Shown: positions 3,554-9,795 of the stretch, piece by piece
Layout: every line of letters starts with the position of its first letter
How positions within the stretch are numbered: the stretch's first letter is position 1
Source of the DNA: Salinigranum sp.
Lineage (GTDB): Archaea; Halobacteriota; Halobacteria; Halobacteriales; Haloferacaceae
Assembly (NCBI GenBank): GCA_041641615.1
Contig: JBEPYA010000001.1
Span: 1 to 53,491 of the forward strand
Length of the DNA stretch: 53,491 nucleotides
Reading direction: 5' to 3'
Made by a program: the position numbers and the translations under genes
Notes under the pieces: model-generated
Told to the model about the DNA's origin: nothing
What the model saw: the letters and a program-made list of their open reading frames with translations, nothing else
The model's database searches: none

Positions 3554-4123
3554 ATGATGTCCACGGACGACCAGCCCTCCCCAGCGCCGAACCCTGAGGA
3601 GACGTTCAACGACCTCCTCACGTACGCTGAGCTCCTCAACACACCACGGCTCGCGCGGCTCTACATTTACATCCTCCAGAACGGGCCCGTCGAGATCGAG
3701 ACCATCAAGTCCGACCTCGAGATGGCTCACTCGACGACGTACAAGTACATCGGCCAGCTCGAAGAGATGGGTCTGCTCTCCCGAGACGACGACGTGACAC
3801 CCACAACGGTCACCGTCGTCCCGATTCGGCTCCAACTCGACACCGAGCACGGCGACGTCCTCGCGACACCCACGCTCGTCGACGCGGTCGGGCGGCAGTT
3901 CGAGAACGAGGACATCCGTGTGTTCGTCGAACGTCAAGGGATTGCGAAACTCGCTGCAGCGCTCCACTACACCCTCCGTGTCATGGCTGGTGAGCTCACT
4001 CAGCGGACGGCGGCGACGAAACTCGGTGTCCACCCCGTCGAGGGGATGACTGTGTTCGCCGCACTCCAGGACGTCGTCGAGGATGCTGCATCCTACGACC
4101 CGTACTTGGAGCGCCCCGAATAA
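3554..4123 (+). CDS. Winged-HTH (TrmB/ArsR-like) protein, putative antitoxin or regulator
   Basis: LARLYIYILQNGPVEIETIKSDLEMAHSTTYKYIGQLEEMGLL wHTH, a second C-terminal HTH, and a TAATG overlap with the next gene. Confidence 0.8.
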   Translation: MMSTDDQPSPAPNPEETFNDLLTYAELLNTPRLARLYIYILQNGPVEIETIKSDLEMAHSTTYKYIGQLEEMGLLSRDDDVTPTTVTVVPIRLQLDTEHGDVLATPTLVDAVGRQFENEDIRVFVERQGIAKLAAALHYTLRVMAGELTQRTAATKLGVHPVEGMTVFAALQDVVEDAASYDPYLERPE

Positions 4124-4662
4124 TGTCGGAAGAGGATGTGGAGATTCCGGACGACAGCGTCGCAATCATCGATAGTAGCGTCCTCTTCGCGATGAGTGGC
4201 CCCTCGAACGACAAGTACCAGGCCTTCGAGCGGTTCGTCCGGAAGCACAGCATCACGGTGACTGTCCCTGAACAGGTGGCCGAAGAAATAGGCGAGAGTC
4301 CCGGAGCCTACGAGTACCAACGTGATCGACTCCGTGCTGCGCAGGACGCCGGCTGGCTGACGCCTGCTCAAATCGACTTTTCCGTCCCACGTGTTTCTGA
4401 AGTCGTCGACAACACTCGGACCCGCATGGCCGCGCTTTCCGCAGATGACGTCACCGAAGACGAAATCGAGAAGACGGATACGGTTCTCGCCGGGCTGGCG
4501 TACCAGTACGTCGCAGAAGGGTCCGCTCACGTCACCGTCTTCGCGAGTGACCGGATCGCCGAGCGAGCCATCGGTGATGTGCTCTCCGCGGTCGGGGTTG
4601 CGGACCGCACATCAGTTGTTGAGGGACGAGCGTTCCTAAAGGACCTCGTCTCGAATTCATAA
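4123..4662 (+). CDS. PIN-domain protein, putative RNase toxin
   Basis: AIIDSSVL, VAEEI, EKTDTVL and ASDRIA give the acidic PIN tetrad; translationally coupled to the HTH gene. Confidence 0.7.
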   Translation: MSEEDVEIPDDSVAIIDSSVLFAMSGPSNDKYQAFERFVRKHSITVTVPEQVAEEIGESPGAYEYQRDRLRAAQDAGWLTPAQIDFSVPRVSEVVDNTRTRMAALSADDVTEDEIEKTDTVLAGLAYQYVAEGSAHVTVFASDRIAERAIGDVLSAVGVADRTSVVEGRAFLKDLVSNS

Positions 4663-5997
4663 TCGGATTCCTCCCCGATGATGTCGACCCCATTGACAAG
4701 GGCGATGACGGCAAAGGGTCGATATTGAAAGAGCGAGTGAAGTGAGGTGCCGACCGCACTTGTAACGACGGGCGGAGCCATGACTCATATCTGTACCGTT
4801 ACTACCGGAAAGATGGAACGCTCACGTCGGAGTACGTCGGTAAAGCGTGACCAAAGCTTATGTAACGACTGCACGCGAGCTGACTTCTATCGTCACATAA
4901 GGGCAATCGTCGACCAATCTCCTTTTGAGCGGTGAAACCGTCCCGCTCCTCACATGTACCAAGTATATGACTATAATTCAGACTGTTATTCAACGGCCTC
5001 GCGCTTCAGTTTGCTCCGACTTGTGAGCGGCATTCCCATACTCGTATTTGGCCTCGAGACGCCTCAAAAACCCAGAAATCGATCGTGTAGCCATCGACGC
5101 CGACCGATTACCGGCACAATTTGCTTGTATTCCTAACTCGTTTTTCGACCTATGTGCGTGCCGAGACGACTGCAGAGACACTCTCGACTACTCTCACGTA
5201 TTTCCTAATCGGGAGAAACCCCCGCAAGGAGAGAGGAGTATGCTGAGTATAAACTCCGATTTGGGGTCCGATGAGCAAGCACTTGGAGTTGGGCCAGTCG
5301 GCCCAACGCGGCCTGGTCAGAAACGTATGAGACAGTGTTGTATCCAAGATATGTCATATTTTCTCTTCCAGAATCTAGTCGAAGTGGGTGACCGGCCTTC
5401 GTCCCGCCCTTGTCTCTAGAGTCCGAGACAAGGTCCAATCGCGTAGTAACGGTGCCGTCGGCACCGTTGTGACGCTCTGTCTCGTGGGTCGGTGAACCAA
5501 CCGATTGGAAGAGTAGTTGAGCACCACTCAGGACAGGAATTCGTTCGATAATCCCTCTCGCCCAATCTCGTCCGTCGGAAGACCATCCGTGTTCTCCGAA
5601 AGGAGAGAGCGTTCGAAGCGACCTTCCTCGATCTTCCGACTCCCGCTGTCGCGACATCTTAGTTGGTTCGCTTGTTGAAAGACCACCGAGCCCGATCACA
5701 CCAAACGGGATTTCACACTCGATTTTACTTATCTCAGCCTTTGCTGCACCTGAATTTGATCAATGATTCTCTAATCTGTCCGAAAACACCAGTGGCGTCG
5801 GTATGTATTCACACTGCTATTGAGCTCGATCAAAGGCGTAGACTGGACAAAAGACACTATCGAGTGTTTTTATGGGGTGTACATCCGGTCATTGTCTCCA
5901 CAAGTACTGGGGTGCAGAATGGGGTGTGCTTTTCGGCACGTGCTAATCACGTGTGAACTCTTCGAGCGGCCCAGACCCCCGTTTTCAGGGGATGCGC

Positions 5998-6306
5998 CTA
6001 CTCGTTCGGATCGTAGATCTTCTTGATCCAGCTACCGGTACCGAGGAGCAGCTGAATCTCCTCGGTCTTCTCGTAGGCGTAATCAAACCCACCGAAGATG
6101 TACCCACAGCCTTCCTCGAGGTCGATGTCATCCGCATAGATGACGCACGGAAGCTGGACGTCGCCCAGCTCGCTATCACCGAGCACGACCTTCTGTCGGG
6201 GGGCGTGCGACCGGAGGTCGACCTCCCAGTTGACGAATCCCTTCGTCTTGACGTATCCCTGGCTCCCGTCGAACTCCTCAAGCGTGATGAACGGCACGCT
6301 GCTCAT
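5998..6306 (-). CDS. Single OB-fold protein, RPA/SSB-like
   Basis: Start at ATG 6306 (ATGA overlap with the upstream gene). QKVVLGD...PCVIY...DLEEGCGYIF...YE...IQLLL resembles haloarchaeal RPA OB folds. Confidence 0.6.
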   Translation of the reverse strand: MSSVPFITLEEFDGSQGYVKTKGFVNWEVDLRSHAPRQKVVLGDSELGDVQLPCVIYADDIDLEEGCGYIFGGFDYAYEKTEEIQLLLGTGSWIKKIYDPNE

Positions 6307-6692
6307 CGGCTCCCACCTCCGCGGACCACCGTCTTTTGCCCACACACCAAGACGGCCGGCTGCGGGGCGCCGCACCCCGGGCACTCGATGTCCGTGATCG
6401 GATCGACGAGGTCGTCGCAGGCGTCACACATCACGAGACCGTCCATCCTCAGGCGGCCATCGTTGTGCAGGACGGTCCGGAGCCAGCCGTCGCGGACGAG
6501 CATGAGCGCGTCGTACCGCTCGTACAGCCGGGCGTAGGAGCACCGCGCTGCGGGCGCCTCGACGGGCGTGGCCTGTCGCCAGGCAACCTCAAGCGGGCGG
6601 TCCGCGGGGGTGCGCTCGTGCCAGCGCTCGTGGGCGTGTGACGTGATCGGTGGGAGATGCATCTGATCGAGGTTCTTGTTGTGTACGGACAT
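6303..6692 (-). CDS. Small protein with a putative BECR/RelE-like RNase domain and a C-terminal C4 zinc finger
   Basis: ITSHAHERWHER helix, LMLVRDGWLRTVL strands, then CDAC-x11-CPGC. Confidence 0.6.
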   Translation of the reverse strand: MSVHNKNLDQMHLPPITSHAHERWHERTPADRPLEVAWRQATPVEAPAARCSYARLYERYDALMLVRDGWLRTVLHNDGRLRMDGLVMCDACDDLVDPITDIECPGCGAPQPAVLVCGQKTVVRGGGSR

Positions 6693-6728
6693 TCGAGGTG
6701 TGAGTATTGGACGGAGTGGTGCGTCGTC

Positions 6729-7128
6729 GTCAGTTTCAGTTCGAGAGACCAGCGGCTACCAGGTTGAGAGTCGGACGTGGGACAGTGTCGCCACTACGCG
6801 CGGTGAATCAGTGGAGCTCGACTGAACTCGACTGACCACCGGTTCAACATTGCATGGTGCTCACTACCGACCGATTGAACGGTCGAATTCCGAGTTCAGG
6901 GGGTTCGAAGGGCCTTGGCTGGTCGACGACGAGAGCGATGCCTCGCGCGTAACAATAGTGGGGAACCGGCCTCCCCAATCTCAGGGGGTGAAAGAGACCG
7001 TTCCCATCTTACGATGGGGAGCGAACGAAGTCCTCACCACAGTGTGGTGGAGGCTGCTTCGCGCCCGTAGGATAACCTGGGGCCGGGACGACGCTCCCCC
7101 TTTCGGGGGGACCGCCGACCGACCGCCC
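6729..7128 (-). ncRNA. Candidate ~400-nt structured RNA (ncRNA or long 5' leader)
   Basis: At least six helices. GNRA loops (GAAA, GUAA) and G-U pairs occur only on the minus strand, a TATA box lies upstream, and no credible ORF is present. Confidence 0.6.
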
Positions 7129-7153
7129 TCATCACGCATATTGGTGCAAGAAA

Positions 7154-7162
7154 TACTTAAAA
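7154..7162 (-). promoter_or_regulatory. TATA box (TTTTAAGTA) for the structured RNA/operon
   Basis: Lies in an AT-rich patch about 25-30 nt upstream of the first helix. Confidence 0.55.
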
Positions 7163-7232
7163 GAAAATGAGCCAGGATAATCTATAAACTAAATAGTATG
7201 TTTTATCCAGTATAATCCGCTTCAATCCGGTC

Positions 7233-7907
7233 TCAATCGTCGCTCGCGCTTGCCTCGTCCTGGCCGGCGCGTACAGGAGTGTTGACGGCACGGGTTCCGA
7301 AATAATTGCGTCTCTTGAGCTCGCGTTTAACCAGCTGTGAGACGCTGTACACGTCTTTCCGTGAGACGTCGTACTGATTGAGGAGATCACAGTAGCCCTC
7401 ATCGTTGAGCATCTTATCTGGGAGAGCATCTGTATCGAGACGTGATAGGTCATCCATCCTTCGGAACCTCCGATTGCGATCCCACTCGACGATGACTTTG
7501 ATTGTCACGAGCGCAACTTTCTCGAGGCGTTTCTGCTGGCCGAACCGATCGAGGTTCATCTTTCCCATCGCGACGACCGCCTCACGTTGCTGATGCGGCG
7601 TGACGTCGAGCACTGAGCAGAACGCTTGCGTGACGCGCTTCTTGTCACGAGCGGCCTCGCGGGCGCTGTGCTTTCCGTCCGACCAGTGACGGCCCTCGTT
7701 GTGGCGGACGAGCTTCGTTACGTCACCACCTGCACTCCCGACTCCAACCCGCGTGTTCCCGAACGAGTCGTATCCAGTTGTATATGCGTCCGGCAGATGA
7801 TCGCGTTCTCGGTCGCGCGACACTTGGCGATCAGGTTCTTCGTCGACGAAATCTCGATCCGTCTCGTCGGTCTCCACATCCTCGGTCGACCGTGAGTCGT
7901 CATCCAC
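7233..7907 (-). CDS. Homolog of the haloarchaeal 'RNA polymerase subunit epsilon' family
   Basis: HSAREAARDKKRVTQAFCSVLDVTPHQQ...MNLDRFGQQKRLEKVALVTIKVIVE matches the recalled family pattern. GTG 7907 chosen as start because GAGG and an AT-rich TATA region (~7950-7970) precede it; the frame stays open to 8258. Confidence 0.65.
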   Translation of the reverse strand: MDDDSRSTEDVETDETDRDFVDEEPDRQVSRDRERDHLPDAYTTGYDSFGNTRVGVGSAGGDVTKLVRHNEGRHWSDGKHSAREAARDKKRVTQAFCSVLDVTPHQQREAVVAMGKMNLDRFGQQKRLEKVALVTIKVIVEWDRNRRFRRMDDLSRLDTDALPDKMLNDEGYCDLLNQYDVSRKDVYSVSQLVKRELKRRNYFGTRAVNTPVRAGQDEASASDD

Positions 7908-8745
7908 GATTCGTTCCTCAATCTCGTTTGAACAGAGGAATAGACATTCATATAATATTGATTGTTTTTCCGGGTTCTCCTTTACTATGAGGTTATTTGG
8001 CGGCTGGTGACCGTGCTTGAGCTCTCGAACGCCCCCAAACGCTCGACTCGGGGGGCTCGCTGTCGTTCGAAAGAGCGCATAGTGCTCTTTCGTGATGACG
8101 AGAGAGTGACGCTCTCTCGAACCACGGTCCTCGGCGCTCCCTCCGGTCACGCCTGCGGTCCTTATGTCGCCCGCCATCGCCGAACGACTCGCTCCGCTCG
8201 CGGAGACGCCGAGCGCCCGGACCCGTTCAGTCCCTCGCCAGTTCGTGTAGGTTGCCATTGGTCACCCGGCTGACCGGGTGTACGCTCATCGGTAGGGTGT
8301 CAACCGTCGCTTCTCTCCTCGACCAGTGTGACGACCACGCTCGCCGCGCTCGCCTCCCTGAGACGGGCACTCCCGATGTGGTCGTTCTACTCGCACGTCG
8401 CAGCTCACGGCGTGCCGTTCGCTTCGAGATTCTCGCGATGCTCGAATCTCGCTTTCGCTCACACCCTCCCGGTGCGCCAGCGGGTGAGGAGGTCGGTGCT
8501 TTCGCTCGCGTGGCGTGCTCAGCACGCGACAAGCCTCACTCCGCTGGCCACTCAGGTCCCCGCCTGCGGCGCGCGCGGCTGGTTGTTTCACTCTCGATGT
8601 GGCGTCTCGCTCGCGCCCCACCGGGGGCACTCGAAGGCGCGAACGAGACGCAGTCGGTGTCGAGTGGTCGTGTAGAGTTGGAACTCATGTAGAGGTGAGT
8701 GTCGGCGAAGACGCGGTAGAGGACGCGCCTTCGCGTCAAAACCCA

Positions 8746-9795
8746 ATGAGTAGTAGCTACGCTATCGGTCAAGAAGCTTCGGACGGACAGGCACAAGAAC
8801 AGAACGCGGAACGGCGGACGGGGCGGTGTAGCGAGTGCGACGGGCGGTTGATTCGTGAGGGTGTCGAGACGGTCTGCGAAGCGTGTGGACTCGTCGTCGA
8901 CGAGGACGCCCTTGCGCGGGAGATGACCCCGAGCCTCCACAAACAAGGGGATGTCGGAGACGGACCGGTGGAGTGGAACCTCGAGCGAACGACCCAACTA
9001 CGGGTCGACCGTGGTCTGCACACGACGTTCTTCCTCGGCTCAGACGGATACGGAAATTCGTTGACGAAAGCGCAGAAGGACGTTTACGGAAGATTGCGGA
9101 TGCGACACAAGCGGTTCCAGATGGAGTCGAAGCGTGCTATCAGACTCAACGAAGGCCTCCGTGATATCCAGATGATCGTCGGGAATCTGGGACTCCCAGA
9201 GTTCGTCGCGGCGGATGCGGCGGCGTTATTGAAGCGAGCGGCGGCGGAACGGTTGCCAGGTGGTCGGATGGCGTGGGAGGCGCTCGCGGCCGGAGCGGTG
9301 TACGTCGCGACGAGCCAGGCGGGCCTCCAGAGAACGACCGAAGACGTGGCTGTCCATGCGAAAACATCTCCTGAACGGGTGTGTGCGGCCGCGCGGAAGC
9401 TACGGTGTGAACTCGGACTCGTCGACGAGGTGCCACCGACACAGGCGTGGGCGGTCGACGCGGTCGTGGAGGTCCTCGGGAAGACGCAGGACGTGGGGTT
9501 GGATGTCTGTCTCGAACTGAGACGAGTCGGGGAGTTCCTCCTCGGGGTTGCGGACGAGGCGTGCATCGGTCCGGGAACGTCGCGTGTGACGGTCGCGGCT
9601 GCGGCGGTGTACGCGGCAGACCGGCTGACTGAGGGGAAGGCCGTGACTCAACAGGCGGTGGCAGACGCGGCCACGACAGTCGTGCCGACGTCGAAGCCCG
9701 TGATTGTGAGATACTCGCGAGAGGTGCACGACGCGTACACGGCGCAGTACGGGACCCGTGACGTCGAGGACGTGATGACGGGTCGGCTGGCCTGA
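8746..9795 (+). CDS. tfb: Divergent transcription initiation factor IIB (TFB) paralog
   Basis: CSEC-x13-CEACGLV Zn ribbon, DRGLHT linker and two cyclin repeats (GGRMAWEALAAGAVY, GTSRVTVAAAAVY, VTQQAVADA). ATG 8746 preferred over the ORF-track start. Confidence 0.88.
   Translation: MSSSYAIGQEASDGQAQEQNAERRTGRCSECDGRLIREGVETVCEACGLVVDEDALAREMTPSLHKQGDVGDGPVEWNLERTTQLRVDRGLHTTFFLGSDGYGNSLTKAQKDVYGRLRMRHKRFQMESKRAIRLNEGLRDIQMIVGNLGLPEFVAADAAALLKRAAAERLPGGRMAWEALAAGAVYVATSQAGLQRTTEDVAVHAKTSPERVCAAARKLRCELGLVDEVPPTQAWAVDAVVEVLGKTQDVGLDVCLELRRVGEFLLGVADEACIGPGTSRVTVAAAAVYAADRLTEGKAVTQQAVADAATTVVPTSKPVIVRYSREVHDAYTAQYGTRDVEDVMTGRLA

Follow-up and report, generated by a model that had tools for sequence, protein, structure and literature searches.

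A conserved structured RNA, a predicted leader apparently of a new class, in a three-gene cassette of haloarchaea

The window, i.e. the whole 53,491-nt stretch of Salinigranum sp. contig JBEPYA010000001.1 (assembly GCA_041641615.1) that was analysed, harbours a ~2-kb haloarchaeal cassette in which gene C, a TATA promoter, a structured non-coding region, gene A and gene B follow one another in that order (Table 1). The structured region (7130-6693, minus strand) forms the non-coding middle of the cassette and is common to many haloarchaea. A preliminary description of this DNA had placed an unrecognised structured RNA ahead of an RNase/Zn-finger gene and an OB-fold gene, and the arrangement is borne out, the RNA lying upstream of a RelE-like/Zn-ribbon gene and an OB-fold-like gene. 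The upstream epsilon-family gene with its promoter type, the P0/P2/Pk core of the RNA and the defence-gene context were absent from that description.

Table 1. Coordinates of the cassette genes, promoter elements and predicted RNA elements in the window.
Feature	Positions	Strand	Basis or remark
Gene C	7233..7907	-	Epsilon-family factor, one cyclin/TFIIB-type fold without Zn ribbon; probable GTG start at 7907
TATA box, epsilon-type promoter	7154..7161	-	Sequence and conservation
Conserved box between TATA and start site	7139..7148	-	Consensus comparison; common to other epsilon loci
Predicted ~440-nt leader RNA	6693..7130	-	Folded core about 7130-6724
P0 5' strand	7125..7130	-	Pairs with 6913-6908; crosses P2
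P1 hairpin (helix 1 of the preliminary description)	7081..7124	-	Pair probabilities, compensatory changes
P2 5' strand	7074..7080	-	Pairs with 6765-6759
Lineage-variable hairpin domain (helices 2-4 of the preliminary description)	6960..7066	-	Not alignable across subfamilies
Pk 5' strand, near-invariant CAG	6918..6924	-	Pairs with 6753-6747; crosses P2
P0 3' strand	6908..6913	-	P0 duplex and swap test
Variable hairpins (helix 5 and local 6841-6801)	6801..6894	-	Main stems 0.93-0.99
hpX, near-invariant GNRA hairpin	6783..6796	-	Precedes P2 3' strand
P2 3' strand	6759..6765	-	Swap test
Pk 3' strand	6747..6753	-	Swap test, covarying columns
Gene A	6303..6692	-	RelE/colicin-D-like RNase fold (predicted) and C-terminal Cys4 Zn ribbon, 129 aa
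Gene B	5998..6306	-	OB-fold/RPA-like protein, 102 aa; start overlaps stop of A

Judging by its structural model, gene A likely encodes a RelE-like protein, a putative RNase or toxin. Structure comparison (VIA) gave Z of 5.4-6.9 to RelE, ParE, colicin D and PYCH_01220, most of the top rows being of RelE type, with the Z values middling and the pLDDT of the model at 67, and the Atlas related it at 0.96 to PF26442 (Halo_toxin) plus PF26443. H19, R23, W24, R27 and four Cys are invariant across the homologs. A Foldseek search with the model gave no match at E<=0.001, 78 distant A homologs had no informative Pfam match, no cut-off match was obtained for A, B or C in Pfam, NCBIfam, PHROGs or PADLOC, and no ToxN, CptN or TenpN family match was found for A in Pfam, NCBIfam or PADLOC. 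At two further loci (L106, L107), A-only homologs lead operons with genes for a 1,500-aa nuclease-helicase and a DEAD/MrfA-type helicase. For gene B, Atlas matches of 0.92-0.95, which reflect language-model features only, point to OB/Ssb-like clusters.

The close homologs of gene C (55-63% identical) carry the NCBI name "DNA-directed RNA polymerase subunit epsilon". Its model aligned with TFIIB at Z 10.3 (rmsd 2.5, 103 aligned) with nearly all top rows being cyclin folds, a Z that helical proteins can also reach through a common arrangement. It differs from TFB/TFIIB in having a single cyclin repeat, no conserved CxxC pairs and no Pfam TFIIB match, and a PDB sequence search gave no match. Matches to the C profile occur in 91 of 201 genomes, and in one family 47 of 49 genomes have them. 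As outlined in the available part of the source, the epsilon subunit of Halobacterium is required for efficient transcription of native templates while its role is described as unresolved or enigmatic (PMC8305020). This protein, OE_1279R, shares its NCBI name with the close homologs of C, a link by name and not by alignment, and the patchy distribution given for its type resembles the spread of C profile matches; the same excerpt (PMC8305020) mentions no fold, promoter or RNA. C has a predicted cyclin fold and a candidate promoter.

When the RNA region was used as a BLAST query, 11 other genomes among 400 were found, seven of them with the same three genes in the same order, and profile searches with gene A brought in 26 metagenome loci, 15 loci of named genomes and another 56 of the 400 genomes with some A homolog. 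In many pairwise comparisons, similarity runs from about -800 to +1185 relative to the TATA box and ends at the gene B stop, while the flanks change. Since similarity ends at the cassette edges amid changing neighbours, the 2-kb cassette moves as a block. Gene C stands upstream of the RNA in most cassettes and is inverted in others. Cassette neighbours are often defence genes: of 84 proteins picked by hand from the surroundings, 30 had PADLOC matches (among them pAgo, GmrSD, type I REase and OLD), a non-random set without background. Most copies lie among defence genes in chromosomes or large contigs and some are plasmid-borne; the surroundings in this window are plasmid-like and not defence-rich, with ParA, Cdc6, a TFB-like gene and an HTH-PIN pair. 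Integrase-like genes occur at 11 of 37 larger loci, a partly circular count as the queries were mostly drawn from those loci. Viral contigs contained no cassette, and the one C match among phage records was weak and came from two entries for a single virus. Among recurring or picked neighbours there was no reverse transcriptase, no conserved helicase or polymerase and no conserved relaxase or Rep.

Several loci deserve separate mention. One cassette with an integrase (L046, L048, L054, L051, L034) is 99.9% identical between Salinirarus and two Halorubrum species, the similarity stopping just beyond the integrase as in a recently mobile integrated element. A plasmid of Halovenus salina (L049/L050) carries the RNA-A-B part twice, with only a C-terminal remnant of C. 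Divergent subfamilies (L072-L076, L141/L176/L177/L181, L179) have C inverted and different structured regions of 420-470 nt (z -2.9 to -6.3), those of the L176 type retaining the GNRA hairpin beside the AUG. In the window itself, a divergent TFB-like gene with a Zn ribbon (8746-9795, plus strand; Pfam TFIIB E 2e-11) adjoins the cassette and is not conserved beside the cassette homologs, and an HTH (DUF7437) gene followed by a PIN-like gene (3554-4662, plus strand) is a probable toxin-antitoxin pair.

The TATA box noted earlier at 7161-7154 is present and conserved, and the transcription start was placed near 7130 by the haloarchaeal TATA spacing rule, which we take to hold here. A pattern of TATA plus box matched 20 of 401 genomes, once each and 17 times in cassettes, against a single match for the reversed control. 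Of 19 other epsilon-family loci, 14 have a related promoter type, with as many as five tandem copies, which links the RNA to epsilon in addition to A-B. From these sequence patterns we infer a promoter type recognised by epsilon proteins, with the long RNA among its transcripts. At seven chromosomal epsilon genes (L145, L146, L148, L150, L151, L153, L155), 2-5 tandem promoter-like units of ~40 nt flank the gene, each followed by 80-130 variable bases with a short structured stretch; several are 84-90% identical between species, a loose pattern of the units has only three matches in the 3.9-Mb own genome, and they resemble an array of small RNA genes, possibly undescribed. Six plasmid epsilon genes (L085, L086, L088, L142, L143, L144) have the same promoter type with leaders of 130-170 nt, several of which show a 5'/3' closing helix, and UUCUAC recurs in five.

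A protein-coding origin of the structured region was rejected, there being no conserved ORF and 94 of 117 indels not being multiples of 3. That it is a conserved structured RNA outside Rfam, as first described, is upheld: an Rfam 15 scan of the window gave no match at gathering score and four of 14-17 bits, far below cut-off, and 13 homolog and epsilon loci gave one match (E 0.37) outside the RNA. None of 14 RNA sequences contained tandem repeats (12-mer), and no guide segment or ribozyme motif was found in the RNA sequences. Motif patterns for the catalytic cores of group I/II introns, RNase P and hammerhead occurred in 0-8 of the 14, at no fixed place. Oligo-T (T4+) runs between the RNA and A occur in 4 of 14 (one in the 3' half) at no conserved place, archaeal terminators being poorly predictable.

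A comparison with shuffled sequences on both strands had been called for, and for 6700-7180 it gave z of -2.35 on the minus strand and -2.29 on the plus strand, values suggestive of more than chance folding. The trimmed 406 nt gave -3.5 sense and -1.5 antisense, and 13 of 14 non-redundant homologs gave -3.2 to -6.6 on the sense strand (20 shuffles each), sense being better in 11 of the 14; one homolog (L025) folds no better than shuffles (-0.03). The MFE z-score was discarded as sole evidence: six further non-coding segments of the window were scored, and two of them, at 5100-5500 and 8350-8750 (minus strand), reached -3.3 and -3.9 against -3.2 for the RNA. Folding energy by itself is not distinctive; conservation and covariation are the decisive evidence. 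The earlier argument that G-U pairs work only on the minus strand proved weak, their share in MFE folds being equal on both strands (187 of 1922 versus 180 of 1931), and GNRA loops, likewise said to work only on that strand, number 10 versus 5 in MFE folds. Strand polarity is read from the promoter, from hpX (U-A/U-G alternation in the stem; loop GCAA in 18 of 25 sequences and GCGA in seven) and from consensus energies (-92.7 sense versus -79.1 kcal/mol antisense), not from overall G-U counts.

The core is predicted from sequence comparison to be a four-helix junction with a double pseudoknot (P0, P1, P2, Pk), beside the GNRA hairpin. In P2, the bases that follow P1 pair with the 3' tail; in Pk, a near-invariant mid-region CAG pairs with the part of the tail immediately past P2; and in P0, the 5' end pairs with the bases immediately past the CAG. 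Both P0 and Pk cross P2. Covariation among homologs, which had been anticipated, is seen in these long-range helices: in swap tests of own versus swapped partners (100,000 permutations), the counts were 0 for Pk, 2 for P2 and 50 for P0, and four negative-control tests gave 0.60-0.97, in a sample of 14 sequences of <80% identity whose relatedness is not fully removed by swapping. The P0 duplex is at its expected position in 25 of 25 sequences and is weak in this window, where 16.6% of own 17-mers pair equally well. Columns of Pk show C-G/U-A/U-G and G-C/C-G/A-U exchanges, and hpX lies within ~100 nt of the AUG even in the divergent subfamily without the knot. A helix closing the 5' end on the 3' tail, suggested by RNAalifold for subfamily 1, was replaced by the 5'/middle helix after a weak swap test (1945/100000); it may represent an alternative state.

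RNAalifold reported covarying pairs in 17 of 89 and 21 of 78 pairs in two subfamilies. Alignment A2, compared with 500 shuffles, beat all of them in cells paired, both-side changes and covariation score, and two type-counting measures of five did not beat the shuffles (392/500, 500/500). The alignments were made from sequence only, and A2 holds 25 of 37 distinct sequences, leaving out L072-076, L141/176/177/181, L179, the RNA-less loci, truncated L018, L026, L045 and near-duplicates. In 15 of 15 pairs the p-distance of the RNA was smaller than the synonymous divergence of A and B and smaller than that of the upstream spacer; its position below synonymous sites indicates purifying selection. 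RNA subfamilies track A/B subfamilies. The region is very probably a real, selected structured RNA.

Of the six helices in the preliminary description, all have the given sequences at the given minus-strand positions, and their standing in the fold varies. Helix 1 (7124-7081) is predicted with pair probabilities of 0.82-0.96 and is conserved with compensatory changes, and helices 3 and 5 are recovered at 0.74 and 0.93. The inner part of helix 2 holds (0.87-0.91), the helix being lineage-specific; helix 4 is complementary as claimed, but with 7006-7003 also used by helix 3 its probability is no higher than ~0.4. The proposed long-range helix 6 (6817-6836 with 6729-6745) is complementary but finds no support, being absent among helices with p>0.3 and not conserved: 6841-6801 folds locally (0.95-0.99), a large part of 6729-6745 is inserted sequence that no other copy in alignment A2 has, and the conserved GNRA hairpin 6796-6783 is a competitor of the enclosed CCACUG/UAGUGG pairing.

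The reading that we favour, if tentatively, is that a pseudoknotted and epsilon-driven leader locks translation of the RelE-like A until triggered. In such a scheme, C as a TFB-like epsilon factor would recognise the TATA-plus-box promoter and give rise to a single RNA-A-B transcript, the leader of which would fold into the junction of P0, P1, P2 and Pk, engaging the 3' tail up to the A start so that translation is blocked. The lock could be held by the OB-fold protein B, by A itself or by both through binding to the near-invariant GNRA hairpin, much as gp32 of T4 acts on the pseudoknotted leader of its own mRNA, while ssDNA or the loss of host transcription during virus infection would open it. 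The freed RNase would then arrest the cell, either as abortive infection or as an addiction that stabilises the defence island. Hiding of the translation start by long-range pairing is known from the hok and ColIb repZ leaders, unlike which no antisense RNA was identified here and the toxin is an enzyme fold and not a peptide. It counts in favour of the lock that 11 of 14 sequences have no oligo-T terminator separating the RNA from A. In 8 of 10 subfamily-2 sequences a loop base-pairs with purine-rich sequence lying 5-12 nt ahead of the AUG; this loop/start-region pairing fails the swap test (51/720) and is absent in subfamily 1. The amount of invariant sequence may point beyond a translational lock. 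At least 2-3 lineages have A-B pairs without RNA or C, in which A lies near a TATA box of its own, the trees of A and B imply at least two to three changes of the RNA/C-less state, and A also occurs alone, leading other operons. As such A-B pairs exist, the RNA is not an obligatory antitoxin.

A wider proposal, which we consider rather unlikely, makes epsilon a TFB-related specificity factor dedicated to ncRNA promoters, which mobile cassettes would have coupled to the ~400-nt double-pseudoknot RNA; together with B as OB-fold sensor and A as RelE-like RNase, this RNA would form an ssDNA-triggered antiviral ribonucleoprotein switch. A Brf2-like division of labour provides the analogy for such a dedicated factor.

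Other explanations can be offered for the same features. The RNA could be processed off the transcript and act in trans as antitoxin or scaffold of an A(-B) ribonucleoprotein, in the manner of type III toxin-antitoxin systems; a pseudoknotted RNA ahead of an RNase-fold gene with which it is predicted to be co-transcribed, a near-invariant hairpin suited to protein binding and the parallel subfamilies of RNA and A/B are all consistent with it, but with no tandem repeats in 14 of 14 sequences, no conserved terminator, and A-B and A-only loci that dispense with the RNA, it is unlikely. A role as replication or mobilisation primer, modelled on ColE1 RNA II, would have epsilon drive the RNA, A trim it and B coat the displaced strand. 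It would suit the SSB-like gene, the plasmid-borne copies and the CGCG-rich inverted-repeat arrays which precede RNA/C-less A-B (3-10 copies in 5 of 5 loci, compared with 0-2 in seven A-only loci and at least 3 in 9% of random windows) and which look like DNA sites seemingly interchangeable with the RNA. Speaking against it are other initiators close by on the plasmids concerned (Cdc6, and P4 primase on a plasmid with C only), the location of most copies in defence-gene surroundings on chromosomes or large contigs, and the lack of a conserved helicase or polymerase nearby; we consider this role distinctly unlikely. As a separate observation, the loci with A-B and without RNA/C (L035-L038, L053, L077, L079, L083, L105) combine CGCG arrays with AT-rich stretches and possibly contain origin-like sites.

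That the RNA belongs to epsilon, as a member of a family of epsilon-promoter ncRNAs acting on RNAP or TBP as decoy, antiterminator or feedback element with A-B as passengers, is suggested by the promoter type at most other epsilon-family loci, where each of the up to five copies is followed by 80-130 nt and several units are 84-90% identical between species, and by the finding of the long RNA only beside C or a C remnant. We hold it to be quite improbable, as the long RNA never occurs without A-B, the hpX pattern (18 of 401 genomes) falls in cassettes in 15 cases and lies without A, B and C in the other three, and past the first bases no motif common to the long RNA and the short units was detected. 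The fold might also work as ssDNA, for transfer or as a single-strand origin: the neighbour is SSB-like, c-GNA-g and c-GNNA-g loops are many, the sense strand has no G-U excess and antisense z-scores are negative too. A conserved TATA promoter directly before the 5' helix, an invariant loop that is strictly GNRA, a sense consensus that folds better and the lack of a conserved relaxase or Rep nearby all weigh against it, so that we give it hardly any credence.

Among known large RNAs, HEARO/omegaRNA, GOLLD, ROOL, OLE and raiA are of similar size, with multi-stem architecture, pseudoknots and mobile-element context. Unlike these, the present RNA has no Rfam match, no IscB, TnpB or HNH partner in the cassette, and an archaeal promoter, and in contrast to retron or RT-associated ncRNA no reverse transcriptase is adjacent. 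To our knowledge, few large structured RNAs are known from archaea. In a full-text literature search whose coverage excludes most subscription journals, neither the RNA nor the cassette nor an epsilon promoter was found to be described.

Two better-studied systems come closer. T4 gp32 acts as a repressor on the pseudoknotted leader of its own mRNA, with ssDNA proposed to titrate it away, as related in the accessible portion of PMC535899; the likeness lies in a pseudoknotted 5' leader upstream of a (here putative) single-strand-binding protein gene, whereas the T4 operator described there is a pseudoknot of ~28 nt plus A/U repeats against a ~400-nt four-helix fold before a toxin-like gene. In type III systems (ToxIN, CptIN, TenpIN), the antitoxin RNA consists of tandem nucleotide repeats and a terminator precedes the toxin gene, according to the available text of PMC5086642. 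A pseudoknotted ncRNA (here predicted) upstream of an RNase-type gene and an anti-virus context are shared with these systems. The haloarchaeal cassette is set apart by the single multi-domain RNA of ~400 nt without short tandem repeats or terminator, by a RelE-like and not a ToxN toxin, by the extra OB-fold gene and dedicated transcription factor, and by the archaeal host; having neither repeats nor terminator, the RNA falls outside the type III antitoxins by the definition given in that text (PMC5086642).

Overall, the large structured RNA presented here apparently represents a new class in haloarchaea and belongs to a three-gene cassette that is new as well, with a function that we infer. 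A strain of Haloferax volcanii is recorded as having a close relative of gene A, which makes tests in a model species possible. For epsilon, a TFB-type fold is predicted and a candidate for its cognate promoter is now at hand, and if the lock model is true, an RNA-controlled toxin module would be added to archaeal antiviral defence.
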